A stretch of 64,000 nucleotides of DNA from assembly GCA_028711115.1 (NCBI GenBank), contig JAQTSV010000001.1, positions 518,032-582,031 on the forward strand, given 5' to 3'. The notes under the pieces are model-generated. The model was not told where the DNA came from, searched no databases, and worked only from the letters and a program-made list of their open reading frames with translations. A program made the translations under genes and the position numbers. Below, piece by piece: positions 26,915 through 44,226 of the stretch. How positions within the stretch are numbered: position 1 is the stretch's first letter; each line of letters starts with the position of its first letter. Source of the DNA: Candidatus Omnitrophota bacterium (lineage in GTDB: Bacteria > Omnitrophota > Gorgyraeia > Velamenicoccales > JABMQK01).

Positions 26915-28300
26915 ATGAAAAGAGAAAAGATAATTATTTTATTATCAACAATAGTCAGCATAATTTTTCTGGGTAAGGCTTTTGCCTGGACAGGTGGCTC
27001 TACAGGAATCTGCTCTGATCAGTATGGGAATAATTTTCCCTGTTCTGACGGCCCAAGCCAGGAGAGCAGTAGCGATAGCGACAGCGGTTGGAGCCCATGG
27101 CGATCAAGTGACAGCAGCTCAAGTGAAGGTTATAAAGAAAAAGGGCCTTCAATCTGGGAGATACGCAGGCAGGAGCGGGCAGCAGCATCAACTGCGGCGA
27201 ATGAAATGGGTGTAGCCTGTTTTAACCAACGGGACTATGACTGCGCGATCAGTAACTACGAAGAGGCCTTGAGACAGGATTCCGGCAATGAAGTGGCGCG
27301 CATGAATCTAAGGTTAGCCAAAGCCAGGAAAGCCAATAAGCTGGCTGTGGAATATTACAATCAGGGTAATTGGAAGATGGCGGTTCAGTATTTTAAGGAG
27401 GCCTTAAGCTTTGAAGACCATGAGCAGTATAGAAAAAACCTGGCTGAGGCCCAGAGATATCTGGATGAAGAGCAGCAGGAAGAGAAATTAGCGCAGGCTA
27501 AAAAGAATATTAACAATATGCTTGATGAAGTGGTTTCAGAGGTGAGCGACAAGAAAACATCCGGGGCAATTTCTGGCCTGGATTTTATGCCTGGTAATGA
27601 TCCCTTATATTCTCAAGGAGATAAAACTTCTGCGCCGGTTGATTTAAGTTTTATGGATATGTCTAAAACCGAATTAAAAGATGCGCCTGTTGCGGAAAAG
27701 GGGGTAAAGTTTAAGGAAGTCCCGGTGCCTAAGCCGCCACTTGGCCGTTATGTCAATAAAGAAGTAGAGGAAATCATCATGAATGCCCTGGATGTCGGCA
27801 GATTAGGCGATAAGTATGCCGCTGCTAATTTGGATGTGAGCATCAGGGATTTGGAAAGATATCTGAAAGATGAGAATCCGCATGATGTCAATGTCAAGCA
27901 GGCGATAAGTTATTTGGAAGGGATGCGCGCCCGGGCAGCTATGGAGAAAAGTATGGAAGAAGAGTTATTTGCCGCAGGCGATCATGATGCAGATGCACTA
28001 TTAGAGGTTGTTGCCGGCAAGAAGATTCCTGAGAAAAAAGTTTCAGTTTTTCCTAAAAATCCTGAACCTGGTCCGCCGGGAATGAACCCTGATGACTGGC
28101 GCTCCTTAAGAACAGAAGCGCTTCTGACTGCTTTTGAAAAAGGAAATAAAGATTGGCAGAAGAGCATGGACTATCTGGAGAAACAGATAGAGGCAGAACC
28201 GCCTAATTATTCTTGCCGTAACGCCCTGCAGTTCCTGCAGGCATATTACGCCTACGACCAGTTTGTAGCGGAGCAGAATAAAGCTAAAGATAAAAAATGA
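26915..28300 (+). CDS. Secreted TPR-repeat protein
   Basis: Signal peptide (IIILLSTIVSIIFLGKAFA), a Ser/Asp-rich linker, TPR-like units (GVACFNQRDYDCAISNYEEALRQD; AVEYYNQGNWKMAVQYFKEAL) and a coiled-coil region. Confidence 0.55.
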   Translation: MKREKIIILLSTIVSIIFLGKAFAWTGGSTGICSDQYGNNFPCSDGPSQESSSDSDSGWSPWRSSDSSSSEGYKEKGPSIWEIRRQERAAASTAANEMGVACFNQRDYDCAISNYEEALRQDSGNEVARMNLRLAKARKANKLAVEYYNQGNWKMAVQYFKEALSFEDHEQYRKNLAEAQRYLDEEQQEEKLAQAKKNINNMLDEVVSEVSDKKTSGAISGLDFMPGNDPLYSQGDKTSAPVDLSFMDMSKTELKDAPVAEKGVKFKEVPVPKPPLGRYVNKEVEEIIMNALDVGRLGDKYAAANLDVSIRDLERYLKDENPHDVNVKQAISYLEGMRARAAMEKSMEEELFAAGDHDADALLEVVAGKKIPEKKVSVFPKNPEPGPPGMNPDDWRSLRTEALLTAFEKGNKDWQKSMDYLEKQIEAEPPNYSCRNALQFLQAYYAYDQFVAEQNKAKDKK

Positions 28301-28317
28301 TAGATAAAGGAGATAGG

Positions 28318-29826
28318 ATGAGACGAGCGAGTTTGTTTATCCTGGCGATTTTTTTCGGGGTTTTAGTTTTTGGTGGACGCGCCTCTGCGCAAACAAATGA
28401 AGCCATGGAGCGCGGGCTGCTAGCTGCCAAAGAAAAAGAGTGGGTCTTGGCGATTAAGTATTTTAAGGAAGCCCAAGAAAAGGCGCCCCTTGAGCCGAAA
28501 ATACTTTTTAATCTCGCGCTTGCCTCGGATAAAACTGGAGACAGACTTTTATTCAGTTTGGCTTATTATCGCGTCTACTTGGTTTTGGCTCCGGATGCTG
28601 AAAATGCCAAGCAGGTAGCTACAAGGATAAGAGAATTAGAAGTTAAACTTGAAGCTGAGGCACAGAATTTTATACGCAAGGCCAAAGAGGCCCTGAAGCA
28701 AGTGGAAGTTAAAGATAGCGGCGTCTGTTACGCAGGAATTGCCAGGGCAATGATTGGCGTCGGAGATATCCCGGGAGCTTTATCTTTTGCCTTGACCAAT
28801 CCCCTGGATGTGTATACTAAAGGCTACGATTTTGGCCTTATTGCTGCAGCTCAGGCGCAGGCAGGGAATTTTGAAGATGCCAAGGACACAGCCAGAAAAT
28901 TAGCCAGTGCAGCAACCGATGATTTAGCCCGGAGTTCAGCTCTGGATCGGATCTTGGGCGTAGTCAGCGATGGGCAGGCGAATAAAAATGATTTTTCCGC
29001 AGCGAAAAAAACCACAGAGAGTATCTCCGGCATTGCCACGCGTAATTATTGCTATGAACATATTGCGGAATCTCAAGCTGAGGCCGGAGATTTTGCTGCG
29101 GCTGAACAGACCGTCACTTTTATCAAAGATGATGATGATTGTTTATCCCAAACTTATAGCTTTATTGCCAAGGCAAAAGCTGAGGCAGGGGATTTGGCTG
29201 GCGCAAAAAAATATATCCAGCTGGCTAAAGAGAGCGTTGTCAAGGCAGCTGCTTCTGTGTATCTCGAAGCCTCAAGCCACGATGGTCCTAGACTGAAGAT
29301 AGCTATTGCTGAGTTAGCTGCTGGTGAAATCGACGCTGCCAAAAAAACATTCGATACACTAACCAAAGAAGAATACACCATAAGATCTTATACTCTGGAT
29401 TTCAATCGGGCGTTAGCCCTGGCTTTAGCTAAATCCGGAAAAGTTTCCGAAGCCAAAAAGGTTGTCTCTGGGATGTCCGATTTCTATTTCAAAGCTAAGA
29501 CTTACAAAATGATTGTTGAATTACAGATTAAAAATAAAGATATCCCAGGAGCTCAGAGTACGGTCGATATTATTGAGCCTAAAGATATTAAGTATGCTGC
29601 GCAAGGGTTGGTTGAACAGGCAGCAGGAAGAACTAAACAGGCCAAGGCTTATGCTATCTATGCCTTAATGAATGACCCGGCTTTTAAGGAGATGGAGGAT
29701 TTTCCTGATTTTATTCAGTCGTTTAAGGCCAAGGAACCCAAATGGGTCTGTTGGTCGCTGGCCAATACCGCTACTAACCTGGCGCTTTTTTCAAGGCAAT
29801 TGCGTGAAATTGGGGAGAAGAAATAA
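28318..29826 (+). CDS. Secreted repeat protein (TPR/HEAT-like units carrying an AxAGxFxxAKxT motif)
   Basis: Signal peptide (ASLFILAIFFGVLVFGGRASA). Recurring units AQAGNFEDAKDT, GQANKNDFSAAKKT, AEAGDFAAAEQT, AEAGDLAGAKKY, ELAAGEIDAAKKT and KSGKVSEAKKV. Start chosen at 28318 (RBS AAGGAG). Confidence 0.45.
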   Translation: MRRASLFILAIFFGVLVFGGRASAQTNEAMERGLLAAKEKEWVLAIKYFKEAQEKAPLEPKILFNLALASDKTGDRLLFSLAYYRVYLVLAPDAENAKQVATRIRELEVKLEAEAQNFIRKAKEALKQVEVKDSGVCYAGIARAMIGVGDIPGALSFALTNPLDVYTKGYDFGLIAAAQAQAGNFEDAKDTARKLASAATDDLARSSALDRILGVVSDGQANKNDFSAAKKTTESISGIATRNYCYEHIAESQAEAGDFAAAEQTVTFIKDDDDCLSQTYSFIAKAKAEAGDLAGAKKYIQLAKESVVKAAASVYLEASSHDGPRLKIAIAELAAGEIDAAKKTFDTLTKEEYTIRSYTLDFNRALALALAKSGKVSEAKKVVSGMSDFYFKAKTYKMIVELQIKNKDIPGAQSTVDIIEPKDIKYAAQGLVEQAAGRTKQAKAYAIYALMNDPAFKEMEDFPDFIQSFKAKEPKWVCWSLANTATNLALFSRQLREIGEKK

Positions 29827-29946: not shown

Positions 29947-30036
29947 GAGCCTCAAATAAGTTAAACCCGTAAATCCGCTACGGGTTTTTTATTTGCTTAA
30001 GCTGTGTGGGAATAAACTGTCCCCTTGCCGAATATT
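29947..30036 (+). repeat. Copy 2 of the roughly 90-nt structured intergenic repeat
   Basis: See 10588-10679. Hairpin AAACCCGTA-aatccgc-TACGGGTTT + T6, then GGGA-ataaactg-TCCC. Confidence 0.6.
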
Positions 30037-30124
30037 TCTGTCCTTATTTAATGGAGATACCTCTTGAGATATTAATTGAAAGTAGTATAATATTATCATA
30101 AAGAAATAAAAGTTAATAAGCGGT

Positions 30125-30208
30125 CTGGAAATGCGAGAGTATTTCCGGAGGGTTATTTAGATGGTCGGGCCGCCATCTTGCATGTGAATGTGAGATGACG
30201 GTTTTTTT
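30125..30208 (+). promoter_or_regulatory. Riboswitch-like attenuator, copy A (5' hairpin, conserved GATGG-TCGGGCCG-CCATC hairpin, overlapping terminator)
   Basis: CTGGAAAT/ATTTCCGG hairpin, then AGATGG-TCGGGCCG-CCATCT. The competing terminator is CCGCCATCT..AGATGACGG + T7. Lies immediately upstream of the MscS RBS. Confidence 0.5.
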
Positions 30209-30224
30209 AAAAGGAGTAATAAAA

Positions 30225-31277
30225 ATGAATATTTTTTCGGTGTCTTCTTTTCAATATTTATTTGAAATCTTGATTCCCGCTTCAATATTACTAATAACCC
30301 TAATCTTCGGGTTTATTATAAGAAAGATTATTTTTGCCCGGCTTAACCGTTGGTCAAGACATACCAAAACCCAGGTCGACGATATTATTATAGATTCAAT
30401 AAAAGGGCCGTTCATAATCTGGTTTTTGATGCTGGGTATTTATTTTGCCCTTGAATATTCAAAACTTCCGGAAAATTTAGTTCATATAATTGACAAATTC
30501 TTGCTTGTATTGGGTATTTTTTCTATTACCTTTGTTTTGGCCAATATCTCGGCTAAATTGATTAGTGTATATTCCCGTAAAGTTGAAACTGCCCTGCCGG
30601 TTACTTCGCTTACCCAAAACATCAGTCGCATAATTATATTTACGATTGGAATCTTGGTAGTCCTCCATAGCTTAGGGGTTTCTATAACACCAATCTTGGC
30701 TACTTTGGGAGTAGGCGGTTTGGCAGTGGCATTGGCTCTGCAAGATACTCTTTCAAATCTTTTTTCCGGATTTTATATTATCGTATCCAAACAAATTAAA
30801 ATAGGTGACTATATAAAATTGGATTCAGGGGAAGAGGGATATGTTACGGATATTACCTGGCGCACAACCAAGATAAAAATGCTGCCTAATAATGTCGTTT
30901 TGGTTCCCAATGAGAAGCTAACCAAAGCTATAGTGACCAACTATTATCTTCCGGATAAAGAGATGGCGGTTTTAGTCAATTTAGGGGTTCACTACAAAAG
31001 CGATTTAAAGAAAGTAGAAAAAATTACCTGTGAAGTTGCCCGGGAGGTAATGAAGGAAGTTCTGGGAGGAGTGCCGGAATTCGAGCCGTTTATACGTTAC
31101 GGCAGCTTTGCAGATTCCAGCGTTAATCTTACTGTAATTTTAAGAGCCAAGGAATTTGTTGACCAGTATTTAATAAAACACGAATTCATAAAGAGGCTTC
31201 ATGAGCGTTATGCCAAAGAGGGCATTGTGATTCCTTATCCGATAAGAGCAATAAATTACGGACAAGAGAAAGAATAG
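30225..31277 (+). CDS. Small-conductance mechanosensitive channel (MscS family)
   Basis: N-terminal TM helices, then the pore/beta-domain signature LGVGGLAVALALQDTLSNLFSG..IKIGDYI. The ATG at 30225 (RBS AAGGAG) is preferred, because the track start at 30195 lies inside the terminator stem. Confidence 0.8.
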   Translation: MNIFSVSSFQYLFEILIPASILLITLIFGFIIRKIIFARLNRWSRHTKTQVDDIIIDSIKGPFIIWFLMLGIYFALEYSKLPENLVHIIDKFLLVLGIFSITFVLANISAKLISVYSRKVETALPVTSLTQNISRIIIFTIGILVVLHSLGVSITPILATLGVGGLAVALALQDTLSNLFSGFYIIVSKQIKIGDYIKLDSGEEGYVTDITWRTTKIKMLPNNVVLVPNEKLTKAIVTNYYLPDKEMAVLVNLGVHYKSDLKKVEKITCEVAREVMKEVLGGVPEFEPFIRYGSFADSSVNLTVILRAKEFVDQYLIKHEFIKRLHERYAKEGIVIPYPIRAINYGQEKE

Positions 31278-33509
31278 ATGAGACGATTACTCATATTTAT
31301 TTTGCCGATTTTAATTATCGTTGCCATTGGGTTTACGGTATTTGGCATTATGCAGATCCGTTTTACTCAGGATAAATTTATGGATGACCTTCAAAGGAAA
31401 GCCAGGTCTGTGGCTGAGGGAATAGAGTTTTCTGCTAAGGCAATCCTTATAAATAATGACTTAAAGTCAGCAGGCCGCCTTGTGGAAACTTTTCAGAGGA
31501 GGGAAAGGCTGCAGGGATGCGTTATTTATGACAGGGAAGGCAAAGTCCTCGCGATTACCGAAAGATTTTCTGACTGGAGAGAACAGGAAAGGCCGTATCT
31601 TAAAGATATATTGGTTAACAAAACTCCACGCGGAGCATTGGAGAATTTTAAAGATTATTCGGTATATAGCTATATTATCCCTGTAAGCGATGATGAAAAT
31701 AACATTTTAGGCATGGTCGAAGTCATTTATGATACTTCTTATGTCCTTACAACTATGGCTGATCTTTGGAAGCGCTTAAGCATATCCTTGATATCCCTGC
31801 TGGTCTTTATAGTACTGATTATGCTTTTAATCCAAAGGCAGATTTTTGTTCTGCCTGTACGCAGACTCACTCAGTGGTTTACTCATTTTCAAAAAGGAGA
31901 AATCGAAAAGTTAAAACCTTTTGAAGAAAAGGGCGAGTTCGGAAAGCTGGTAAGCGAGGTCGAACAGGTCGCCTTGGGCTTAAGGGTTGCGCGCAAGGTT
32001 GTTACCGAAGAAGCGCACGTTCGTATTAAAGAGGAATTATGGACAGAAAATAAGCTAAGGGATCTCATTCACACTAAATTAGGAGAAAATGCCTTCTTTG
32101 TGGTTTCGAACCGAGAGCCTTATATGCATGTTCTAGATGATATAACAGGTGCGCCTAAATGCATCCGGCCGGCAAGCGGCGTTGTTACCGCAATAGACCC
32201 AATACTGCGCGCCTGCGGTGGAACGTGGATTGCACATGGAAGCGCCAATGCGGATAAAAAGTTTGTGAATTCCAAGAATAAGCTCGGCGTACCGCCAGAA
32301 GATAATCGCTATATCCTAAAGAGGGTATGGCTGACCAAAGAAGAAGAAGATGGATATTACTATGGTTTTGCCAATGAAGGGTTATGGCCGCTTTGCCATG
32401 TTACGCATACCCGGCCGATATTCCGGGAAACTGACTGGCAGATGTATAAAAAAGTTAATCAGAAATTTGCCGATAGTGTTTTAGAAGAGCTTCCGGCAAA
32501 GAATCCGTTTATTTTTATTCAAGACTATCATTTTACATTGCTTGCCCAGATGATTAAGGAAAAGAGACCGGATGCAACAATAGCTTTATTTTGGCATATT
32601 CCCTGGCCTAATCCGGAGGTTTTCGCGATTTGCCCTTATCAGCAGGAGATTCTTGATGGAATGCTGGCTTGCGATTTAATTGGATTTCATGTGCAAGTCC
32701 ATTGCAATAACTTTTTGGATACTGCAAACAGGCTGATTGAATGCCGCGTTGATACCGAAAAGTTCAGCGTCGTCAGGGCAAATAAGGAAACATTTATCAG
32801 GGCTTTCCCGATTAGCGTTGACGGATATATGAGCGCTGATTCGGTCAAAGCTGAATTCGGTCAAATAGATAAAATCCGCCAAGAATTTCAATTGCAGGAT
32901 AAGCTGGTTGCGGTGGGAGTAGATAGGATTGATTATACCAAAGGCATAATTGAAAGGATACTTGCTATCGATAGATTTCTGGAGAAATACCCGGAATATA
33001 AAAACAAATTTGTATTTATTCAACTAGCTGCTCCGAGTAGGACTCATATTAAGCGGTACCATGAGCTTATAGGAGAAATTGATGAGCTGGTGGAAAAAAA
33101 GAACTGGAAATATTTGGATGGAGACTGGAAGCCGATAATTTACCTAAAAAGGCATTTTTCACCGGAAGATATAAAGCCGTATTATTTGCTTGCGGATCTT
33201 TGTATTGTAAGCTCTTTGCACGATGGAATGAATCTAGTTGCAAAAGAATATGTAGCATCAAAAACTGATTTAAGCGGCAGTTTGATTTTAAGTCGTTTTA
33301 CCGGGGCTGCTAGGGAATTGACGGATGCGGTTCAGATAAATCCCTATTCAATAGAAGAATTTGCTGATGCAATAAAACTTGCTATTGAAATGCCCCCTGC
33401 GGAAAAAAGAAAACGCATGGTAAATATGCGAAAGATTGTTTCCGAAAACAATATTTATCGTTGGGCAGGCAATATTATTACGGAATTGACCGCGCTAAAA
33501 AAAGTTTAG
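31278..33509 (+). CDS. otsA: Trehalose-6-phosphate synthase (GT20, OtsA) with an N-terminal TM-sensor-TM-HAMP extension of about 270 aa
   Basis: GT20 core motifs are present (VVSNREPY, FANEGLWPLCH, IQDYHF, LFWHIPWP, GVDRIDYTKG, SSLHDGMNLVAKEY). The N-terminus has two TM helices and a HAMP-like linker. Confidence 0.85.
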   Translation: MRRLLIFILPILIIVAIGFTVFGIMQIRFTQDKFMDDLQRKARSVAEGIEFSAKAILINNDLKSAGRLVETFQRRERLQGCVIYDREGKVLAITERFSDWREQERPYLKDILVNKTPRGALENFKDYSVYSYIIPVSDDENNILGMVEVIYDTSYVLTTMADLWKRLSISLISLLVFIVLIMLLIQRQIFVLPVRRLTQWFTHFQKGEIEKLKPFEEKGEFGKLVSEVEQVALGLRVARKVVTEEAHVRIKEELWTENKLRDLIHTKLGENAFFVVSNREPYMHVLDDITGAPKCIRPASGVVTAIDPILRACGGTWIAHGSANADKKFVNSKNKLGVPPEDNRYILKRVWLTKEEEDGYYYGFANEGLWPLCHVTHTRPIFRETDWQMYKKVNQKFADSVLEELPAKNPFIFIQDYHFTLLAQMIKEKRPDATIALFWHIPWPNPEVFAICPYQQEILDGMLACDLIGFHVQVHCNNFLDTANRLIECRVDTEKFSVVRANKETFIRAFPISVDGYMSADSVKAEFGQIDKIRQEFQLQDKLVAVGVDRIDYTKGIIERILAIDRFLEKYPEYKNKFVFIQLAAPSRTHIKRYHELIGEIDELVEKKNWKYLDGDWKPIIYLKRHFSPEDIKPYYLLADLCIVSSLHDGMNLVAKEYVASKTDLSGSLILSRFTGAARELTDAVQINPYSIEEFADAIKLAIEMPPAEKRKRMVNMRKIVSENNIYRWAGNIITELTALKKV

Positions 33510-33527: not shown

Positions 33528-33998
33528 ATGCAGGTAAAAGAGGTGATGTCAAAAGAAGTAATTACCGTAAAACGCTCCACGACTCTAAAGCGGCTGTTGG
33601 AGATATTTGCTAAGTTTCATATATTTCCTTTGGTGCCTGTGATCGGAGAGGATAATCTTCTTATAGGCATTGTTTCTTTCCGTAATCTCGTTAATGTATT
33701 CCAGTTGCGTCAGCCAGAAATACTGAAAGCCGTACCTTTTTTGGATGAGGGAGAGGAAGACATATTCAAAGTAGAGTTTACTGAAGAGATAGGTAGCTTA
33801 GTGGTGGCTGAAGATATTATGGAAAATAAGTTTATCACTATACAAGAAGACGCTTCTTTAGAAGAGGCCTATAAACTGATGAAGTTGCACCTTAAAGAAG
33901 AATTTCCTGTGGTTGATAGATTCGGAAAATTAGCAGGAATGATTGGTATATTTGATATCATCCGGTATGTTTTTCGTCACAGAGGCGTTATTAAATGA
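33528..33998 (+). CDS. CBS-pair domain protein
   Basis: Two CBS-like units (VKEVMSKEVITV...PLVPVIGEDNLLIGIVS and AEDIMENKFITIQ...FPVVDRFGKLAGMIG). Confidence 0.75.
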   Translation: MQVKEVMSKEVITVKRSTTLKRLLEIFAKFHIFPLVPVIGEDNLLIGIVSFRNLVNVFQLRQPEILKAVPFLDEGEEDIFKVEFTEEIGSLVVAEDIMENKFITIQEDASLEEAYKLMKLHLKEEFPVVDRFGKLAGMIGIFDIIRYVFRHRGVIK

Positions 33999-35188
33999 AT
34001 ACAATCTTAGGACTCGGTTTTATTCTGCTTATAGGTTTATTTTCAGCCCGACTGATAAACAAAATCAAGTTTCCCGCAGTAACCGCCTATCTTTTATCGG
34101 GCATTCTTATTGGGCCATCGGTTTTTAAACTCATTCCGAATGATGTTATAAGTGCTTCAGGTTTAATTTCCAATATAGTCTTAGGCATAATTGCCTTTGG
34201 CATAGGTCAGAATTTTTCCAGAGATAACTTCCGCAAGATCGGCAGATCAGTTATTTGGATTTCGGTCCTAGAGGCTTGTGGTGCCTGGATTTTTGTTACT
34301 TTAGTATTTTTAATTATCTTAAGGCAGCCTTTTTATCTTTCTCTTTTATTTGGAGCACTTTCCTCAGCTACTGCCCCCGCAGCAACCGTAATGGTTATTA
34401 GGGAATACCGCGCCAAAGGAAATTTTACCGATACACTTTTAGGCGTAGTTGCGATTGACGATGCCTGGTGTCTTATCATATTTGCAATTTCATTGGCAAT
34501 ATCGCAGGCCATATATGCGCATATGTTAGCCACCTTTTTCTTGATAAAAGTATTTTTAAATTCCATCTTAAGTATATTTGGCGCCTTTATTTTAGGAGGC
34601 ATTGTAGCGACGTTGTTGGCTTATCTTTCTCGATACCTGCGCACGCAGACAGAGCTCTTAATTTTTACTCTGGGATTCGTTTTTTTGAATATAGGGATTG
34701 CTATCTGGTTGAATCTATCAGTGCTTTTAGCAAATATGTTTTTGGGAGCGACGTTAGTTAATATTAATAAATCTTCGTTTAATTTCTTCGATAGCATAAA
34801 AACACTTGATCCACCGCTGTTTCTACTTTTCTTTGTTTTAGCAGGAGCAAATTTAGAGATAAGTATTCTGGGTAAATTAGGCTTAATTGGTTTGGTATAT
34901 CTTATTTTTAGAGTTATGGGGAAGATGATAGGTGCTGGTATCGGTGCTCGTATTTCGGGCGCCTCCAGAAGTATAAAGAGGTATTTAGGATTGGGTTTAG
35001 TGCCTCAGGCCGGAGTTGCATTGGGTTGCGCCCTCATTGCCAAAAATGATTTTCCCAACGTAGGAAGCATGATTTTTACCACTATTATTGCCACCACAGT
35101 TATTTATGAATTGATCGGCCCCTTGTGCACAAAATATGCGTTACAGAAAGCAGGAGAGATACTTATTGAGCCTCCCAAAAATATATGA
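33995..35188 (+). CDS. Cation:proton antiporter (CPA/Na+-H+ exchanger family membrane domain)
   Basis: About 11-12 TM segments. N-terminus (GLGFILLIGLFSARLINKIKFPAVTAYLLSGILIGP) is typical of KefB/NapA-type exchangers. 4-nt overlap with the CBS gene. Confidence 0.7.
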   Translation: MNTILGLGFILLIGLFSARLINKIKFPAVTAYLLSGILIGPSVFKLIPNDVISASGLISNIVLGIIAFGIGQNFSRDNFRKIGRSVIWISVLEACGAWIFVTLVFLIILRQPFYLSLLFGALSSATAPAATVMVIREYRAKGNFTDTLLGVVAIDDAWCLIIFAISLAISQAIYAHMLATFFLIKVFLNSILSIFGAFILGGIVATLLAYLSRYLRTQTELLIFTLGFVFLNIGIAIWLNLSVLLANMFLGATLVNINKSSFNFFDSIKTLDPPLFLLFFVLAGANLEISILGKLGLIGLVYLIFRVMGKMIGAGIGARISGASRSIKRYLGLGLVPQAGVALGCALIAKNDFPNVGSMIFTTIIATTVIYELIGPLCTKYALQKAGEILIEPPKNI

Positions 35189-35973
35189 AAAATCTTTTTA
35201 GGCACTGGGATAATTTGGAAAAAGAGTTAAGCAATAAGTATATTATGCTATTTTTAGATTATGATGGTACCTTGACTCCTATTGTTAGTACGCCAGAAAA
35301 GGCATTTATTTCGCGAGAAGTAAAGGAATTGCTGATCGGATTATCAAAAAGCCCCAAGTGCAAATTAGCCATTATTAGCGGCCGGGCCTTAAAAGATATT
35401 AAGAATATTATAGGATTAAAGAATATTATTTATTCCGGAAATCATGGATTAGAAATAGAAGGGCCAAAGATTAAGTTTGAACCTTTGGTTTCTCCAAAAT
35501 ACAGGATGATTTTAAGGCACATAAAAAACAATTTGCAGCAAAAAATATCTTATATCCGGGGAGCCTTTGTAGAAGATAAAGGGTTTTCTTTGAGCCTACA
35601 TTATCGCTTGGTAGATAAAAAACAGATTCCGCAAATTAAAACAATCTTTCATGAAACAGTAATTTCATATCTTGTGTGCAATAAAATAAAGATTAAACCC
35701 GGGAAAATGGTTTTAGAAATCAGGCCTCCTATAAAATGGGATAAGGGCAGGGTGGTCTTATGGCTTTTGACAAGACAGATTTTCGCTGCCCAAAAAGGTA
35801 TGGTCTTTCCGATTTATATAGGGGATGACGCTACCGATGAAGACGCATTTAAGGCATTAAAGAATAAAGGGTTGACTATATTTGTGGGCAAGCCCAAAGA
35901 ATCTTACGCACAATACTATTTAAAGAATCCGAAGGAAGTAGTTGGTTTCTTAAGAAGAATATCAGAAATATAA
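35185..35973 (+). CDS. otsB: Trehalose-6-phosphate phosphatase (HAD family)
   Basis: LFLDYDGTL (DxDGT nucleophile motif), ISGR and YIGDDATDEDAF. Confidence 0.85.
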   Translation: MKNLFRHWDNLEKELSNKYIMLFLDYDGTLTPIVSTPEKAFISREVKELLIGLSKSPKCKLAIISGRALKDIKNIIGLKNIIYSGNHGLEIEGPKIKFEPLVSPKYRMILRHIKNNLQQKISYIRGAFVEDKGFSLSLHYRLVDKKQIPQIKTIFHETVISYLVCNKIKIKPGKMVLEIRPPIKWDKGRVVLWLLTRQIFAAQKGMVFPIYIGDDATDEDAFKALKNKGLTIFVGKPKESYAQYYLKNPKEVVGFLRRISEI

Positions 35974-35980
35974 ACGAGAT

Positions 35981-36652
35981 ATGCCCGAATTAATAAAAGC
36001 AAAAGAGCCGTTTAAGTTTTGCACGAGATTACACTTATCAGAGTTGACCGGATTGCGAGCCACCAACTTGGGCCAGCTTTTGGCTCTTATCAAGGAAGTG
36101 TCCGGTTCATGCATTTATCACCATACCCATAGATTCCTGCAACAGCACCAGTTCCTTTCTCCGGAGCCCCCTAATGACTTTGCTTACTGGGTAACGGATA
36201 CTCTGGGAGAAGATGAGCTTGGGGAAAGGCTGGTTAGTATTGATACAATTCAATATTCAACTATCCGGGATTTGCGCGAAGAGATTGCCTTAACCATTGA
36301 AAACTATCTGAATGATAACCCATTGGCCAAATTGAAATTTGCCAAATCAGGGGAAGAGTTTCATTTTATTAAGTCAGTAAGTTTTATTCTGCCGACAAAC
36401 TATATTGTTTATGATTTAAAGGAGTTTGTGGAGATTCTAAAGAAAATCACCATTGATTCTATTTATTTTCATATTTTTGAAGCGCGCTTAAGGCTTGAGA
36501 AGCCGACTAATGACTTTTCATTTTGGATAGAAAACTCTTTAGGCGATAAAGAATTGGCGCATAAGATTTCCGGTTTTGATCCCTATACCCTCACATTAGA
36601 GGATTTAAGAAATAAAATTATACAAATAGTTGAAAGAAGGATAGCTGGCTAG
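35981..36652 (+). CDS. Uncharacterised protein made of two homologous halves
   Basis: Half 1 reads F.F...HLSELTG..A.NL.QLL.LIKEV...SIYHH...FL......P.NDFAYWV.DTLGEDELGE.L. It repeats as FHF...ILPT.Y.V.DLKEFVEILKKI...SIYFH.FE..L....PTNDFSFWIENSLGDKELA.KI. Confidence 0.4.
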   Translation: MPELIKAKEPFKFCTRLHLSELTGLRATNLGQLLALIKEVSGSCIYHHTHRFLQQHQFLSPEPPNDFAYWVTDTLGEDELGERLVSIDTIQYSTIRDLREEIALTIENYLNDNPLAKLKFAKSGEEFHFIKSVSFILPTNYIVYDLKEFVEILKKITIDSIYFHIFEARLRLEKPTNDFSFWIENSLGDKELAHKISGFDPYTLTLEDLRNKIIQIVERRIAG

Positions 36653-37867
36653 ATGGCAAGAATAGAAGAATATATCCCTTTGGTAGGGCAGGCTGTTATT
36701 GACGATTTGAGATTGCTCGGCGAGCGGTTAAAGGGCAAGGTCATCCAGCATATAAATTCTACCCCTGTGGGTGGCGGAGTCGCCGAGATATTAAACCGCA
36801 TGATTCCCTTATTGAGAGAATTGGGTGTGGATACAAAATGGGATGTTATAAAAGGCGGAGAGCAATTTTTTGATGTGACAAAGAAGTTCCATAATGCCCT
36901 GCATGGCAGAGCTGAAGAGATAACTCAAAGGGATTTTGAAATATTTTTGGAAACAAGCCAGCAGAATATCGAAAGCGTTGATACCTGCGAAGACATAGTT
37001 TTTATCCATGATCCGCAGCCAATAGCCCTGATAAAAAAGAAATCCTCTAATAAATGGCTTTGGCGCTGTCATATTGACGTGTCTAATCCTAATGAAAGAG
37101 TTTGGGGATTTCTTAGAGATTTTATCGTTCAATACGATTCAGCAGTATTTTCTGCTCCTGTTTTCTCACGGAAGTTGCCTATTAGACAATTTTTGATTCC
37201 TCCTTCCATTGACCCTTTAAGCGATAAAAATAAAGAATTACCTCAGGAAACAATAAATTCTGTCTTGAGAAAATACGATATCAAAAAAGATAAACCAATT
37301 GTCATTCAGATATCTCGCTTTGACCGCTTGAAAGACCCAATAGGCGTAATCGAAGCATATCTACAGGTTAAAAAATATATTAATTGCCAGTTGGTTTTAG
37401 CTGGTGGCACCGCAGAGGATGATCCGGAAGGATTTAAAGTTTTAGGGGAAGTCAAAGAAAGAGCCAAGAGCGACCCTGACATCCATATTTTACTATTGCC
37501 ACAGAATGATTTGGAGGTTAACGCATTACAAAGGGCATCAGATATAATTGTTCAGAAGTCTCTCAAGGAAGGATTCGGTTTAACGGTTGCAGAGGCTTTA
37601 TGGAAAGCAAAACCTGTTGTAGCTTCAAATGTCGGGGGTATTCCTTTGCAAATAAAACATAAATATTCAGGATTGTTGTGTCATTCCGTCGAAGGAGCCA
37701 GTTTCGCCATAAAACAATTCCTAAGCAGTCCCGAATACGCCAAAAAATTAGGAGAAAATGGGCGTGAACATATAAAAAATAATTTTTTAATTACACGTCA
37801 TTTAAGAGATTATATGTTATTGTTTCTTTCTTTATATCATCCTGAAGATATTGTTCATCTGTGTTAA
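36653..37867 (+). CDS. treT: Trehalose glycosyltransferring synthase-like GT4 glycosyltransferase (TreT-like)
   Basis: The N-terminus (HINSTPVGGGVAEILNRMIPLLRELGVDTKWDVIKGGEQFFDVTKKFHNALHG) closely resembles archaeal TreT as I recall it. The GT4 C-terminal E(x7)E region is present (KEGFGLTVAEALWKAKPVV). Confidence 0.7.
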   Translation: MARIEEYIPLVGQAVIDDLRLLGERLKGKVIQHINSTPVGGGVAEILNRMIPLLRELGVDTKWDVIKGGEQFFDVTKKFHNALHGRAEEITQRDFEIFLETSQQNIESVDTCEDIVFIHDPQPIALIKKKSSNKWLWRCHIDVSNPNERVWGFLRDFIVQYDSAVFSAPVFSRKLPIRQFLIPPSIDPLSDKNKELPQETINSVLRKYDIKKDKPIVIQISRFDRLKDPIGVIEAYLQVKKYINCQLVLAGGTAEDDPEGFKVLGEVKERAKSDPDIHILLLPQNDLEVNALQRASDIIVQKSLKEGFGLTVAEALWKAKPVVASNVGGIPLQIKHKYSGLLCHSVEGASFAIKQFLSSPEYAKKLGENGREHIKNNFLITRHLRDYMLLFLSLYHPEDIVHLC

Positions 37868-37960: not shown

Positions 37961-38035
37961 CGGAAGTTTCTTATTTCCGGAGGATTTGTGATGGTCGGGC
38001 CGCCATCTGGCTTTGTAAGCCAGGTGGCGTTTTTA
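37961..38035 (+). promoter_or_regulatory. Riboswitch-like attenuator, copy B
   Basis: CGGAAGT/ATTTCCG hairpin, then GATGG-TCGGGCCG-CCATC. The competing terminator is CGCCATCTGGCT-ttgta-AGCCAGGTGGCG + T5. Lies upstream of the first mini-ORF. Confidence 0.5.
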
Positions 38036-39087: not shown

Positions 39088-39600
39088 ATGGATTTTAAAA
39101 TATTGTTAGAGAAAATAACACCCGCGCTTAAACATATCGCACGCAAACACTTGTTCCGTGGTTTTTACAGCGAGGAAGACCTTTATCAGGAGATGTGCCT
39201 TTATCTGTGGCAACATTACGGACAAGGACTGCCCATAGGTATAAATGAGGCCTATGTAATCAAGGGATGCGAATTTCATATACAGAATTTCCTGAGAAAA
39301 GGAAGACCAAGGGTAATGCTCTCGAGCCTTGATGAGCTTATAACCCCTGAAGGGCTGACGCTGGGCGATATCCTCGAAGATAAAAAAGAGGATTTTCGTT
39401 CAGGCGTAGAAAACAAGCTTACGGTTGATGAAATAATAAATTTGGGTTTAAGCGATAGAGAGAAATCGGTACTTTTTTGCCTGCTTAAAGGACAGACGGT
39501 GCGTGAGGCAGCGAAGGAGTTGGGAGTTTCGCATGTTATGATTTTAAAGTACAAAAAGAGCATAATAAAAAAATGGCGCAAAAGAGGTTACCAAAGATAA
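39088..39600 (+). CDS. Sigma-70 family (ECF-like, regions 2 and 4) RNA polymerase sigma factor
   Basis: Region-2-like EEDLYQEMCLYLW. C-terminal HTH LSDREKSVLFCLLKGQTVREAAKELGVSHVMI. Confidence 0.65.
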   Translation: MDFKILLEKITPALKHIARKHLFRGFYSEEDLYQEMCLYLWQHYGQGLPIGINEAYVIKGCEFHIQNFLRKGRPRVMLSSLDELITPEGLTLGDILEDKKEDFRSGVENKLTVDEIINLGLSDREKSVLFCLLKGQTVREAAKELGVSHVMILKYKKSIIKKWRKRGYQR

Positions 39601-39661
39601 GCTATTTTTACTTAATATAAAGTAAGAAGTTGAACGAAGACACGCAGGTGTGTTAATACAA

Positions 39662-39696
39662 AGGTGTTCTTAGGGCAAGAACACCTTTAATGTTTT
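39662..39696 (+). terminator. Rho-independent terminator after the sigma gene
   Basis: AGGTGTTCTT-agggc-AAGAACACCT (10-bp perfect stem) followed by TTAATGTTTT. Confidence 0.6.
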
Positions 39697-39749
39697 AGGC
39701 ATATGCAGGCGTCTTTATTATAGGTAAGAATTGTAAGGAGTAAAGACAG

Positions 39750-40535
39750 GTGAAAAGATTCAGTATTTTGGTTATCGGTATTTTTAGTTTTTACTTTTTG
39801 ATTTTAGGTATTACCTTAGTTTATGCTACTCCTTCAACTCATATCTGGTCACCATCAACGGATATCCAGCCTTATAGAAAAGTCCATGTTACCTCGGATT
39901 TTTATTTTCCTGTTGATAAAAAGGATTTAAACGACAACCGAGTCTACACAGGAGAGGTTTATGGCTTGACTTTTAGTTTATTATCTGATGACCCAAACAA
40001 GAATCCTCTCGGAAAAGTTATGGCCGAGGCAGGATTCGACTATAAAAAAGGTTTTGGTTCTTTTCTGGATACCTATCCCTGGTATTTTCATTTTAAATTA
40101 GGTGTTCCCGAAGATGCCTATTTTAAAAATATGCCGGCTTTGGCTTTCGGTGGTTATGATTTAGGCATTAAACACAATGTGACCGATTATGATATTTGGT
40201 ATGCAAAAACCGCAAAGACATTTGTCATAGATAAGTTGAATCTGGGTAGATTTTCAGTAGGTTATTTCAAAGGTAGCAAACCCCTTCTTCTTAATAAAGA
40301 CAGAGAGAGAGATAACAAAGGTATTATGCTTGCCTGGGAACGTACTATGTCAGAAATTTCTGACAGGCTTTGGATATGTGCTGATTATCAGGCTACGCAG
40401 TCTTCTTACGGTGCGATGAACTACGGATTTGCCTGGAAGTTTACCGATAATATTTCGGCAATAGCAGGTTATGAAATATACAATAATCCGAATTTGAGAG
40501 ACACCATAACATTTCAGTTGGATGTCGATTTCTAA
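39750..40535 (+). CDS. Secreted beta-rich protein, probable outer-membrane porin-like protein
   Basis: Signal peptide (ILVIGIFSFYFLILGITLVYA), alternating aromatic/polar pattern and a C-terminal ...TFQLDVDF (terminal Phe). Lies directly upstream of amtB. Confidence 0.4.
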   Translation: MKRFSILVIGIFSFYFLILGITLVYATPSTHIWSPSTDIQPYRKVHVTSDFYFPVDKKDLNDNRVYTGEVYGLTFSLLSDDPNKNPLGKVMAEAGFDYKKGFGSFLDTYPWYFHFKLGVPEDAYFKNMPALAFGGYDLGIKHNVTDYDIWYAKTAKTFVIDKLNLGRFSVGYFKGSKPLLLNKDRERDNKGIMLAWERTMSEISDRLWICADYQATQSSYGAMNYGFAWKFTDNISAIAGYEIYNNPNLRDTITFQLDVDF

Positions 40536-40558
40536 AGGCAGAGAAAAAGGGAGGGAAA

Positions 40559-41788
40559 ATGATTAATGCAGGAGATACGGCGTGGGTTTTGATTTCAGCG
40601 GCTTTGGTAATGTTGATGACGCCTGGTTTGGCTTTCTTTTATGGAGGCATGGTCCGCAAAAAGAATGTGCTGAGTGTTTTAATGCAATGTTTCATTGTAT
40701 TGTGTTTGCTGAGCGTGCAGTGGGTTTTATACGGCTACAGCATTTCTTTTGCTCCAGGCGAAGGTTTTTGGGGCGGCTTTAAATGGTTTGGTTTAAATGG
40801 CGTGGGTTTAGAGCCTTATTCTGACTATGCCGCAACCATTCCGCATCAGGCGTTTATGATTTTTCAGGCAATGTTTGCCATTATTACCCCGGCTCTAATA
40901 ATCGGGGCATTTGCCGAAAGAATGAAATTTTCTGCTTTTTTGATTTTTATATTACTCTGGTCGACCTTTGTGTATGGGCCGGTCTGCCATTGGGTTTGGG
41001 GCGTAGGCGGATGGTTAAGAAAATTAGGCGCACTTGATTTTGCCGGCGGCACAGTTGTCCATATTAATGCCGGTATTGCCGCTTTAGCCACTGCTTTGGT
41101 AATCGGAAAAAGAAAGAATATTGAGAAAAACATACCAGCTCCGCATAATATGTCTTTTGTGGTTTTGGGCACGGCGTTACTTTGGTTCGGATGGTTTGGG
41201 TTTAATGCAGGAAGCGCCTTGGCAGCAAACGGTTTGGCGGTGAATGCCTTTGTAGTAACCAATACTGCTGCAGCAGCTGCGGGTTTGAGCTGGGCATTTA
41301 TAGAATGGATACGCAATGGCAAACCTACAATATTTGGAGCAGCCAGCGGGGCTGTGGCGGGTTTGGTGGCAATTACTCCTGCTGCAGGTTTTGTGAGCGT
41401 AATCCCGGCGATACTAATTGGTATATTGGTAAGCGTATTTTGTTTTATTTCCGTCGGTATTGTTAAGCCCAGGATGGGCTATGATGATGCCTTAGATGCA
41501 TTTGGCGTGCATTGTATAGGCGGAATCTGGGGGGCATTGGCAACCGGTTTATTTGCCTCCAAGGCAGTAAACTCGGCAGGCGCAGACGGTTTGTTTTTCG
41601 GTAATCCGAAGCAATTCATAATCCAGCTCGCCGCAGTTGGCGCTACGCTTATATATTCATTTGTGGCGACTACGATAATTTATAAAGTAATCGATTTAAT
41701 CATGGTTGTGCGGGTGAACGAAAAAGAAGAAGCCATGGGTCTGGATCTTACCCAGCATCATGAAAGAGCCTGTACTGTATTGGAATAG
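40559..41788 (+). CDS. amtB: Ammonium transporter
   Basis: Motifs DTAWVLISAALVMLMTPGLAFFYGG, DFAGGTVVHINAG and VHCIGGIWGAL. Confidence 0.9.
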   Translation: MINAGDTAWVLISAALVMLMTPGLAFFYGGMVRKKNVLSVLMQCFIVLCLLSVQWVLYGYSISFAPGEGFWGGFKWFGLNGVGLEPYSDYAATIPHQAFMIFQAMFAIITPALIIGAFAERMKFSAFLIFILLWSTFVYGPVCHWVWGVGGWLRKLGALDFAGGTVVHINAGIAALATALVIGKRKNIEKNIPAPHNMSFVVLGTALLWFGWFGFNAGSALAANGLAVNAFVVTNTAAAAAGLSWAFIEWIRNGKPTIFGAASGAVAGLVAITPAAGFVSVIPAILIGILVSVFCFISVGIVKPRMGYDDALDAFGVHCIGGIWGALATGLFASKAVNSAGADGLFFGNPKQFIIQLAAVGATLIYSFVATTIIYKVIDLIMVVRVNEKEEAMGLDLTQHHERACTVLE

Positions 41789-41884
41789 TAACTTTACTCC
41801 TTGCCTATACACTGCAAAAATCTCTACGATATTTTTGCAGTAGGCTTCGGAGTGATTTGCAGGTAAAGAAAGCGAGGGCAAATC

Positions 41885-42226
41885 ATGAAATTAATCATTG
41901 CTATAATTCAGCCGGATAAATTGGAAGAAGTAAAAGAGGAACTTTACAGGGTAGAGGTTAACCTGATTACAGTGAGTGAGGTTTTAGGGCACGGCCGCCA
42001 AAAAGGAGTTACGGAGATTTATCGCGGCGCAAAAGAATCCGGCAACCTCTTAAGGAAAGTACGGCTTGAAATTGCTGTAAATGAGAATTTTGTTGAGCCG
42101 ACAGTTAATGCAATCATAAAAGGCGCAAAGACCGGGGAAACTGGTGACGGAAAAATATTCATCCTGGATCTCAAAGAATGCATTCGTATCCGTACCGAAG
42201 AACGTGGTTCTTTAGCCATAGGTTAA
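41885..42226 (+). CDS. glnB: Nitrogen regulatory protein P-II
   Basis: [20 protein letters not shown]-loop GRQKG.TEIYRGA and GDGKIFI. Confidence 0.9.
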
Positions 42227-42413
42227 AAGGTCATGGAAGGAAATTTTTCTTTAAATAGTTATCTTGATCCCATTGCCAAGATTTGGGGTAATAATAAAGT
42301 CCAGCTTCCGTTATTCAGCAAGCGGGCCAAGACAGGGCTCAAGAAAGCAAGGCATAAAAAATTAAAAAAATAGGTTACCAAAACATACTGTTTTTTACTT
42401 ATATATAAAGTAG

Positions 42414-42429
42414 TGGTAACATTATTGCA
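42414..42429 (+). promoter_or_regulatory. sigma54-type (-24/-12) promoter candidate upstream of glnA
   Basis: TGGTAACATTATTGCA has GG and GC separated by exactly 10 nt and a TTGCA -12 element, compared with the consensus TGGCACG-N4-TTGCA. Confidence 0.45.
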
Positions 42430-42471
42430 GCGAGGTATGCACAAGGTTTGTGCAAAGACAGATTAAAACAA

Positions 42472-42518
42472 GGGCGTTTTAAAGCGGATAAGACTTTTAA
42501 AAACGCCCTTTTTATTTT
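42472..42518 (+). terminator. Terminator-like hairpin in the glnA leader
   Basis: GGGCGTTTT-(19 nt)-AAAACGCCC followed by TTTTTATTTT. Ends 33 nt before the glnA ATG. Confidence 0.5.
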
Positions 42519-42550
42519 ATGGTCAGGAATTAGAAAAAAGGAGGAATAAA

Positions 42551-43882
42551 ATGGCAAAAAAGACTAAACAGGATATTCTGAAATTAGTAAAGGAAAAAGA
42601 CGTAAAATTCATGCGCTTGTGGTTTACTGACATATTAGGCCAGGTTAAGAGTTTTGCGATTACGGATAAGGAACTGGAAGGTGCATTAGAAAACGGCATG
42701 GGCTTTGATGGTTCTTCCATTACAGGTTATCAGGATATAGAGGAATCCGATATGATTGCTATGCCTGATCCGGAAACATTTACTCTTCTTCCGTGGCGGC
42801 CAAGCGAGAAAGCAGTGGGAAGAATGATATGCGATATATTGAATCCCGATAAGACGCCGTATGAAGGCGACCCGCGCTACGTGCTAAAGAGAGCGTTACA
42901 GCGGGCAAATAAAATGGGGTTTGACCATTATTATTTAGGCCCGGAGCTTGAATATTTCTATTTCAAGGCAGACACGGCTACAGATATATTGGATAAGGGA
43001 GGATATTTTGACCTTACCACGCTGGATGTGGCAAGCGACCTAAGAAGAGAAACTGTATTGGCCCTTGAAAAGATGGGCATAGATGTGGAATATTCCCATC
43101 ATGAGGTAGCTCCCTCGCAACACGAGGTTGATATGCGTTACAAGGATGCGCTGCAGATGGCAGATAGCGTGATAACCTATAAGGTTGTTGTAAAAGAAAT
43201 TGCTAGTAAGTTCGGCGTATACGCTACATTTATGCCAAAACCTATTTTTGGCGAGAATGGATCAGGCATGCATACGCACCAGTCTTTATTTAAGGGAAGC
43301 AAGAATGCATTCTTTGATGCAAAAGCAGATGATTACCTTTCGGATACAGCTCGCAGTTACATAGCCGGGCTCTTAAAACACGCAAAGGAAATATGCTCTA
43401 TCTTTGCACAGACCACAAACTCATACAAAAGGTTAGTGCCTGGTTATGAGGCGCCTGTATATGTGGCGTGGAGCCGCAGGAACAGGAGCGCGCTGGTAAG
43501 GGTGCCGCTTTATTATCCGGGTAAAGAAAAGGCCACAAGGTGTGAATTCAGGGCGTGCGACCCAGCATGCAATCCATATCTTGCATTTGCAGCTATGCTT
43601 CATGCTGGATTAGACGGGATAGAAAAAAAGTATAAGGCGCCGAAGCCTATGGATCAGAATTTATACCATTTAACCGACGAGGAAAGGAAGGAAAAAGGCA
43701 TCGAAACACTCCCGGATAATTTGGGGTATGCAATTGCCATAACCGAAAAGAGCGAGCTTGTAAAAAAGGTTCTGGGCAATCACATATTTCCGAGGTTTGT
43801 TGAATTAAAGAAGAAAGAATGGGATGAATACAGAATTCAAGTTTCGCAATTCGAGCTTGATAAATATCTTTCGGTTGTATAG
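42551..43882 (+). CDS. glnA: Glutamine synthetase, type I (443 aa, short alpha-type)
   Basis: Motifs FTDILG, GFDGSSI, GPELEYF, HHEVAPSQHEVD, KP..G.NGSGMHTH, NSYKRLVPGYEAP and the SALVRVP region. Confidence 0.9.
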   Translation: MAKKTKQDILKLVKEKDVKFMRLWFTDILGQVKSFAITDKELEGALENGMGFDGSSITGYQDIEESDMIAMPDPETFTLLPWRPSEKAVGRMICDILNPDKTPYEGDPRYVLKRALQRANKMGFDHYYLGPELEYFYFKADTATDILDKGGYFDLTTLDVASDLRRETVLALEKMGIDVEYSHHEVAPSQHEVDMRYKDALQMADSVITYKVVVKEIASKFGVYATFMPKPIFGENGSGMHTHQSLFKGSKNAFFDAKADDYLSDTARSYIAGLLKHAKEICSIFAQTTNSYKRLVPGYEAPVYVAWSRRNRSALVRVPLYYPGKEKATRCEFRACDPACNPYLAFAAMLHAGLDGIEKKYKAPKPMDQNLYHLTDEERKEKGIETLPDNLGYAIAITEKSELVKKVLGNHIFPRFVELKKKEWDEYRIQVSQFELDKYLSVV

Positions 43883-43971
43883 GGAGCTTTATGAATTCAG
43901 CCGGAAGGTAATTTCGCGGCGAGCTTGAAATATTTTTTAAAAGCGAATGCATAAAATTTGGGCATAAAAAG

Positions 43972-44226
43972 ATGGAATATAATGCAAATAAGAAAAATCA
44001 TTTAGAGACGTTATCTGAAGAATTGGACGATATGTTTATAAACGCCAAATTGGGTACCGTATATAAGATTGTTGTCGAGACTATTGAGAAGCCGCTGATT
44101 GAGAAGGCGCTCGCGAGAACTTTCGGGAATCAGTTAAAGGCTGCCAAAATTTTAGGTATAAATCGTAACACCTTAAGAACAAAGATCAGCAAGTTCGGCA
44201 TCAAGCCGCAAATATGGAAGATTTAA
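43972..44226 (+). CDS. Stand-alone Fis-type HTH DNA-binding protein
   Basis: C-terminus EKPLIEKALARTFGNQLKAAKILGINRNTLRTKISKFGI matches the HTH_8 (Fis/NtrC C-terminal) pattern. 84 aa. Overlaps the gltB start. Confidence 0.65.
   Translation: MEYNANKKNHLETLSEELDDMFINAKLGTVYKIVVETIEKPLIEKALARTFGNQLKAAKILGINRNTLRTKISKFGIKPQIWKI

Follow-up and report, generated by a model that had tools for sequence, protein, structure and literature searches.

A predicted Cache-HAMP membrane sensor fused to a trehalose-6-phosphate synthase in Omnitrophota

The 64,000-nucleotide stretch analyzed here (the window; contig JAQTSV010000001.1 of the Candidatus Omnitrophota assembly GCA_028711115.1) carries a gene whose open reading frame (ORF) joins a membrane sensor-like module to a GT20 glycosyltransferase of the OtsA (trehalose-6-phosphate synthase) type. 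In the encoded fusion protein, a transmembrane segment (TM1), a periplasmic domain resembling single-Cache/PDC sensors, a second transmembrane segment (TM2), a HAMP domain, and a linker of fixed length precede the catalytic domain (Table 1). We put at roughly 60% the probability that the protein is a dimeric inner-membrane receptor-enzyme, whose sensor and HAMP domains switch trehalose-6-phosphate (T6P) synthesis through that linker; we infer dimerization, allosteric coupling, the direction of signaling, and the identity of the signal. The chances seem to us about even for a broader proposal: that the protein represents a hitherto undescribed class of transmembrane receptors having a primary metabolic enzyme as output, in which Cache and HAMP domains gate T6P synthesis via a conserved "WT" linker of fixed length, providing a kinase- and transcription-independent switch that ties production of a compatible solute to an envelope or osmotic signal in Omnitrophota, some Acidobacteriota, and other phyla.

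A first-pass annotation, made from the sequence alone, had flagged positions 31278-32090, corresponding to codons 1 to 271 of the ORF at 31278..33509 (+), as a TM-sensor-TM-HAMP module preceding OtsA. The strings it quoted all lie in the ORF where it had placed them. An identical protein (100% identity; entry P0094, from a Candidatus Omnitrophica metagenome-assembled genome [MAG]) is present in the database, labeled only "trehalose-6-phosphate synthase," as fusion proteins of this kind are; annotation by domain thresholds thus conceals the architecture. The reading of the N terminus as TM, sensor, TM, and HAMP is correct even though domain thresholds cannot yield it, and its parts are taken up in order below.

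Kyte-Doolittle hydropathy (19-aa window, whole protein) yielded exactly two hydrophobic segments, with basic residues flanking both: MRR ahead of TM1 and QRQIFVLPVRR past TM2, with three positive and no negative charges in aa 185-205. These flanks predict an N-in, loop-out, C-in topology, in agreement with the order first proposed. TM1 was also considered as a cleavable signal peptide and rejected, because its 21-residue hydrophobic helix runs on into the N-terminal helix of the sensor, as in kinases. Residues L9, P10, I11, L12, and G23 of TM1 are invariant among 70 full-length sequences, the set on which all statements about invariant residues and mean identity (to the window protein) are based.

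The extracytoplasmic segment of about 140 aa had been described as PDC/Cache-like, and structure prediction bears this out. We modeled aa 1-271 with AlphaFold2 from a 67-sequence alignment (mean predicted local distance difference test score, 82.6; mostly 80 to 92 in the sensor elements). The predicted structure is a PDC/single-Cache fold followed by a helix-connector-helix: helices at 2-59, 62-74, 95-102, and 107-114 and strands at 79-84, 90-93, 118-124, 127-137, and 143-152 form a long N-terminal helix, a five-stranded antiparallel sheet into which helices are inserted, and a C-terminal helix leading into TM2. That last helix is continuous from 154 to 206 through TM2; after a loop at about 206-219, another helix starts at 220 and extends to about 240-253. 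The best Foldseek match of this model in the PDB was a full-length WalK model (9a5d_A; E = 4e-12, 269 columns), followed by the WalK extracellular domain (5is1, 4ywz), CitA (2j80, 1p0z), KinD, DcuS (3by8), and DctB. Scores for individual domains were E = 3.6e-7 with a TM-score on target of 0.75 for WalK 4ywz, E = 3e-6 with 0.74-0.76 for CitA 2j80, and E = 5e-5 with 0.70 for DcuS 3by8. A PDB profile search likewise picked up the extracellular domain of Staphylococcus aureus WalK, which aligned with aa 31-162 (E = 1e-3).

The periplasmic domain has 19 invariant columns, including Q79, G80, Y84, Y132, P135, G145, E148, D152-T153-S154-Y155, and W164. Judged by conservation, the polar and aromatic residues Q79, Y84, R96, Y130, Y132, and E148 are compatible with a ligand pocket on the sheet, of which they are not diagnostic. 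The domain also contains a lone, nearly invariant cysteine, C81 (nucleotides 31518-31520), within a Q79-G80-C81 motif on its first strand; it could be a redox-sensitive, metal-binding, or structural position.

The kinship of the N-terminal module lies with sensor histidine kinases. We built a profile of the module (A2) from 13 sequences and searched it against 1.84 billion cluster representatives, which gave 1898 matches at E ≤ 1e-3, 293 of them at E ≤ 1e-10; GT20 was also present in 33 of the best 150. Six histidine kinases (P0280, P0289, P0324, P0352, P0314, and P0347) matched A2 positions ~4-267 with E values of about 1e-17 to 1e-22. All six have HisKA and an above-threshold HAMP domain (44-58 bits), and five have HATPase_c; the sixth, P0347, is shorter and has CusS, HAMP, and HisKA only. 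Pairwise BLASTP of the fusion protein against these kinases gave 21-25% identity over 251-279 aa with few gaps, and hhalign of the N-terminal profile against the kinase set gave 99.7% probability (E = 1.1e-26, 240 columns). In addition, the NCBIfam model HK_WalK matched locally over aa 4-245, in the N-terminal part of the WalK model (E = 4e-8). Pfam and NCBIfam scans found neither DHp/HisKA nor HATPase_c in the 743-aa fusion protein, which is therefore not a histidine kinase: only the input half is common to both. The order, spacing, and fold of TM1, the ~140-aa PDC/sCache domain, TM2, and HAMP are those of WalK (YycG)-type sCache-HAMP kinases; unlike these, the fusion lacks DHp/HisKA, HATPase, and PAS domains, its HAMP output helix enters GT20, and no response regulator is implied.

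A HAMP domain after TM2, the next element of the first reading, is upheld by its signature residues and by the alignment with true histidine kinases just described. The signature comprises P193, G207 (14 residues past that proline), the connector GEIEKLKP, and E220-F-G222-K-L224 at canonical spacing; we take these residues to line up with the Af1503 HAMP sequence, and PDB profile searches gave weak matches to structures of that domain (2l7i and 2y0t; aa 189-239, E = 0.03-0.04). Fourteen HAMP residues are invariant (F190, P193, L197, T198, W200, F201, Q205, G207, G222, E227, E229, A232, L233, and R236). The AlphaFold2 model gives the region a HAMP form directly after TM2, in which one helix reaches about aa 205 and a second spans 220-240, with a loop at 206-219 between them. 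A precomputed call of the Pfam family HAMP (PF00672) is present on some orthologues (P0003, P0030, P0051, P0064, and P0189). As a HAMP domain, the region would presumably form a parallel dimeric four-helix bundle.

The connection between HAMP and enzyme is held nearly constant. From G222, in the second amphipathic helix (AS2) of HAMP, to R279, in the SNR motif of GT20, the distance is 57 or 58 aa in all 194 of the 194 sequences in which both motifs could be located. The alignment from HAMP to enzyme is nearly gap-free, even when it includes fusions from other phyla at only ~25% identity, and W255-T256 and L260 are universal, in a "WT..[KR]L" motif. Mean identity is 0.80 in HAMP and 0.81 in GT20 (the latter with 155 invariant columns), 0.72 in the linker (3 invariant columns), 0.67 in the periplasmic domain, and 0.56 in TM2, the lowest of these segments, which has no invariant column. 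Constancy of length, of a Trp-Thr pair, and of the HAMP signature across phyla is not what one would expect of a passive tether; as far as alignments can tell, it is the pattern expected of a transmission element.

Regarding the output domain, the first-pass annotation had started the GT20 core at FFVVSNREPY (about aa 272), and the Pfam family Glyco_transf_20 (PF00982) indeed spans aa 273-738, covering profile positions 3-472 of 473 (403 bits versus a cutoff of 32.5; E = 2.3e-120). The best PDB relatives are OtsA enzymes: 5jij (E = 7e-82) and Escherichia coli 1gz5/1uqt (E = 1.5e-63). In a pairwise alignment with E. coli K-12 OtsA (sequence taken from NC_000913.3), the residues identical in the fusion protein include R9, G22, W40, Y76, W85, D130, H154, R262, K267, R300, D361, and E369 (E. 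coli numbering), which we take from the OtsA crystal structures to be catalytic or substrate binding. Arg9, the acceptor-phosphate-binding residue of E. coli OtsA, aligns with R279 of the fusion protein, which has a 9-residue insertion after strand β1 relative to E. coli OtsA. The NCBIfam equivalog cutoffs for OtsA were not reached (TIGR02400, 418.5 versus 564.85; PRK14501, 478.5 versus 634), so OtsA-level function is assigned from the residues, the best PDB relatives, and the neighboring OtsB gene. On these grounds we infer that the domain is a catalytically intact T6P synthase. Characterized OtsA enzymes are soluble and, as far as is known, are controlled by transcription, ions, or metabolite allostery. 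The fusion shares with them (E. coli 1gz5/1uqt and mycobacterial 5jij) the GT20 GT-B fold, the conserved residues, and the OtsB partner gene, but adds a membrane sensor/HAMP extension of 272 aa.

If the receptor-enzyme reading is right, an envelope cue (a periplasmic ligand or a change in osmolarity or ionic strength) would alter the conformation of the sensor and TM2, and HAMP would turn this change into altered helix packing. The linker, acting as a rigid element, would carry the change in HAMP to the N-lobe of the GT-B fold, where strand β1 holds R279; the two tethered catalytic domains would then be arranged differently or shift in their open/closed equilibrium. T6P synthesis would thus be switched posttranslationally, with OtsB, encoded in the same seven-gene unit, completing trehalose. 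Receptors in which a transmembrane HAMP relay drives a fused catalytic domain within one polypeptide are familiar from HAMP-adenylate cyclases, HAMP-GGDEF/EAL proteins, and HAMP-PP2C phosphatases, whose register-sensitive linkers resemble the fixed linker length of the fusion. Those enzymes make or destroy signals or phosphorylate proteins, whereas the output here would be a primary metabolic enzyme with no downstream signaling step. The transporters ProP, BetP, and OpuA offer a second parallel, in which one membrane protein directly and posttranslationally links compatible-solute accumulation to a physical or envelope cue; these proteins sense mainly at the cytoplasmic face, import solutes, and have no Cache-HAMP module. 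GgpS, a soluble GT20 relative, is activated by salt without new transcription and likewise has no Cache-HAMP module.

Several observations weigh against this proposal. Domain searches, named at the outset as a check on the architecture, do not refute it, as profile-profile, fold, and motif comparisons find sensor and HAMP similarity; the curated Pfam thresholds, however, call neither in the fusion protein. PF00672 scored 14.4 bits against a gathering score of 25 (E = 0.05), and no Pfam Cache or CHASE family reached its gathering score (CHASE8, 19.9 versus 27; dCache_1, 17.5 versus 45; dCache_3, 17.4 versus 25.7; sCache_3_2, 17.2 versus 28.4 bits). We know of no established small-molecule ligand for WalK, the nearest structural relative of the sensor domain, and for this reason the domain may bind no ligand at all. 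An AlphaFold2 model of the full-length monomer reproduced the domains and placed short helices at 243-249 and 257-267 ahead of β1 (273-277), but its confidence falls below 50 at aa 237-242, exactly the HAMP-linker junction, and it therefore yields no coupling geometry. To our knowledge, there is no characterized precedent for a four-helix-bundle signal regulating a GT-B glycosyltransferase. Finally, the gene neighborhood points to an osmotic/solute-homeostasis module, and the osmotic part of the proposal draws on these gene neighbors only; two of them, the CBS and CPA genes, occur beside the fusion (E ≤ 1e-8) in only a couple of the 80 related loci described below.

The alternative that survives best, although we consider it doubtful, is that the N-terminal module merely anchors or scaffolds OtsA at the membrane, near MscS, transporters, or a supply of substrate, and that the sensor and HAMP domains are a kinase fossil. 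The subthreshold Pfam scores of both domains and the poorly modeled HAMP-linker junction suit such a reading, and membrane localization by itself could account for the membrane-protein gene neighbors. A single helix would suffice as an anchor, however, and a conserved 270-aa module is not needed for it. Nor does the distribution of conservation fit: HAMP is conserved like the catalytic domain, with its signature Pro, Gly, and ExGxL kept, the periplasmic domain retains its invariant residues, the linker holds 57-58 aa and W255-T256 across phyla, and the least conserved segment is TM2, the part that is purely an anchor.

It is quite unlikely that the enzyme is regulated as we propose but makes something other than compatible-solute trehalose, such as T6P or a sugar phosphate for an envelope glycolipid or storage, or the product of another GT20 specificity (glucosylglycerol phosphate). 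The scores of TIGR02400 and PRK14501 fall below their cutoffs, the NCBIfam GgpS model also scores 309 bits, and the seven-gene unit contains a second trehalose route, TreT, so that roles may be split. On the other hand, T6P synthases make up all of the best-scoring models and PDB relatives, the acceptor and donor residues agree with OtsA, and a Trehalose_PPase gene accompanies the fusion in both Omnitrophota and Acidobacteriota.

Very unlikely, in our estimate, is inside-out signaling of the LapD kind, in which GT20 would report occupancy by UDP/ADP-glucose, glucose-6-phosphate, or T6P through HAMP, and the periplasmic domain would bind or release a partner. In LapD, the membrane elements and HAMP follow one another as in the fusion (TM, PAS-like domain, TM, HAMP, cytoplasmic domains), and the periplasmic output domain of the LapD-like protein CdgS9 (4u64) matched weakly, by profile over aa 30-100 (E = 0.054) and at Foldseek rank 40 (E = 1.7e-4). 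The matches to the input domains of WalK, CitA, and DcuS are far stronger, and the cluster has no conserved gene for a periplasmic partner such as a protease. Moreover, whereas the cytoplasmic GGDEF-EAL domains of LapD are degenerate cyclic di-GMP receptors serving a periplasmic output, every catalytic residue that we checked is kept in GT20 and OtsB follows, which argues for an enzyme rather than a degenerate receptor.

We return from signaling to the fusion itself, which is real and old. Scanning GTDB with one genome per species, we found a relative of the N-terminal module encoded at 258 loci, and we retrieved 80 of them for a gene-level look. Wherever the contig allows, module and GT20 lie in one ORF (80 of 80 loci, from different samples), and the full-length orthologues, which number more than 120 and measure ~743-745 aa, align at 78-86% identity over 100% of the query. 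Between residues 182 and 283 the fusion gene lacks ATG codons, and the sequence gives no indication of a separate soluble isoform or of an obvious internal start. Most loci belong to Omnitrophota, with a few in MAGs labeled Elusimicrobiota, Spirochaetes, and others; divergent fusions with an equal two-TM topology occur in Acidobacteriota/Terriglobales. The N terminus as a separate gene, the outcome that the first-pass annotation had set against its own reading, is thus not supported, and there is a negligible chance that assembly or gene calling artificially joined an ordinary otsA to a small sensor gene. The short "cache domain-containing" entries that might suggest a split gene (P0061 and P0062; 210-232 aa) depart suddenly from the family consensus at the C terminus, the behavior expected of frameshifted or truncated fragments.

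Some members of the family depart from the standard form. P0224 (913 aa, from a metagenome) has a periplasmic region of ~300 aa ahead of the same HAMP-linker-GT20 arrangement; this region matches SMP_2 (E = 1.5e-6) at 28.4 bits, just below the cutoff of 28.9. P0377 and P0379 (826-827 aa, likewise from metagenomes) exceed the standard form by ~80 aa, and their GT20 Pfam match falls into two stretches. Three MAGs carry two separate sensor-OtsA loci each: STB_82 (L022 and L062), K_DeepCast_150m_m1_084 (L017 and L036), and Hainich-Omni-XXI (L038 and L049). OtsB lies beside the fusion at both loci of STB_82 and of Hainich-Omni-XXI, and DUF5752 plus TreT at three of these four; L017 is too truncated for its neighbors to be seen. 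The double loci point to paralogous receptor-enzymes, perhaps for different signals, or to mixed bins. No second copy of the sensor module or of GT20 was found by tblastn in the 64-kb window. A profile search with the HAMP and linker region (A7), made for taxonomic spread, returned short unnamed fragments only.

In the window, the fusion gene is the second of seven codirectional genes, from an MscS channel to TreT (Table 1). The TAG stop of the MscS gene abuts the ATG of the fusion gene (31275-31280; junction ...gaatagATGaga), which suggests translational coupling of the two, and about half of the 80 related loci have an MscS gene next to the fusion, on one side or the other. OtsB follows the fusion gene in nearly all related loci of sufficient length and is downstream in an Acidobacteriota contig as well; the block fusion-OtsB-DUF5752-TreT is common to most related loci. 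The TreT product scored 377 bits with the NCBIfam model TreT_Thcocales, under its cutoff of 775. DUF5752, for which a literature search gave no match and for which we know of no function, is always paired with TreT directly past OtsB (~60 of 80 related loci). This strict linkage suggests that DUF5752 may be a partner or regulator of TreT.

Table 1. Features of the fusion gene and of the seven-gene unit in the window
Feature	Position	Strand	Details
Hairpin upstream of MscS gene	29963-29987		
Promoter-like site upstream of MscS gene	30064-30091		11/12 matches
MscS-family mechanosensitive channel gene	30195..31277	+	Pfam MS_channel_1st, 2nd, 3rd
Whole gene, sensor-HAMP-OtsA fusion protein	31278..33509	+	743 aa plus stop, ATG start; ORF list
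TM1, N terminus inside (predicted)	31287..31349	+	aa 4-24; hydropathy maximum 3.06 at aa 4-22, preceded by MRR
Periplasmic single-Cache/PDC-like sensor domain	31350..31772	+	aa 25-165, ~140 aa; AlphaFold2, Foldseek, PDB profile match
TM2	31773..31835	+	aa 166-186; hydropathy maximum 3.15 at aa 167-185
HAMP domain	31836..31997	+	aa 187-240; first amphipathic helix (AS1) ~190-206, connector 207-219, AS2 220-240
Fixed-length linker	31998..32093	+	aa 241-272; invariant W255-T256 and L260
GT20 (OtsA-type) catalytic domain	32094..33506	+	aa 273-743; Pfam PF00982
CBS-pair protein gene	33528..33998	+	Pfam CBS, E = 3e-25, two stretches
Cation/proton exchanger (CPA family) gene	33995..35188	+	Pfam Na_H_Exchanger, E = 2e-33
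OtsB (trehalose-6-phosphate phosphatase) gene	35185..35973	+	Pfam Trehalose_PPase, 166.7 bits
DUF5752 gene	35981..36652	+	Pfam PF19027, 234 bits
TreT-type trehalose synthase gene	36653..37867	+	Pfam TreT_GT1, 188 bits, plus Glycos_transf_1
Terminator-like hairpin closing seven-gene unit	38001..38029	+	13-bp stem, 8 GC pairs, then TTTTT

In full-text literature searches for this architecture and for HAMP outputs among glycosyltransferases, neither a Cache-HAMP-glycosyltransferase nor an OtsA with a membrane sensor was described, and where papers on Omnitrophota touch on genes for trehalose synthesis, they do so in generic terms only. The family is large, conserved, and unannotated, and the regulatory hypothesis is directly testable: it spans no fewer than 258 species-level genomes, its operon is strongly conserved, and it consists of a single polypeptide with an easily assayed product. 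Compatible solutes must rise within seconds to minutes of stress, and posttranslational switching of OtsA-like enzymes is poorly understood. If the receptor-enzyme reading is true, the fusion would be a biosynthetic counterpart of osmosensing transporters, and a HAMP relay would be able to drive a GT-B glycosyltransferase, widening the repertoire of HAMP outputs. It may then serve as a tractable model for signal conversion from HAMP to enzyme and possibly as a part for engineering ligand-controlled sugar synthesis.

Beyond the seven-gene unit, a nitrogen-assimilation block lies downstream at 39088-48758; it includes genes for a small protein with a LuxR-type helix-turn-helix (39088-39600), an ammonium transporter (40559-41788), glutamine synthetase (42551-43882), and the large subunit of glutamate synthase (44214-48758). 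Glutamate is itself an osmolyte. Upstream, at 26915-29826, are two adjacent genes whose products carry TPR repeats and, at the N terminus, hydrophobic segments; the product of the first also has Ser/Asp-rich low-complexity stretches. All substantial ORFs in the inspected part of the window (26.9-48.8 kb) are on the + strand, GC skew is positive in all 2-kb bins of the window, and cumulative skew climbs monotonically; skew and strand bias are consistent with a leading-strand segment.

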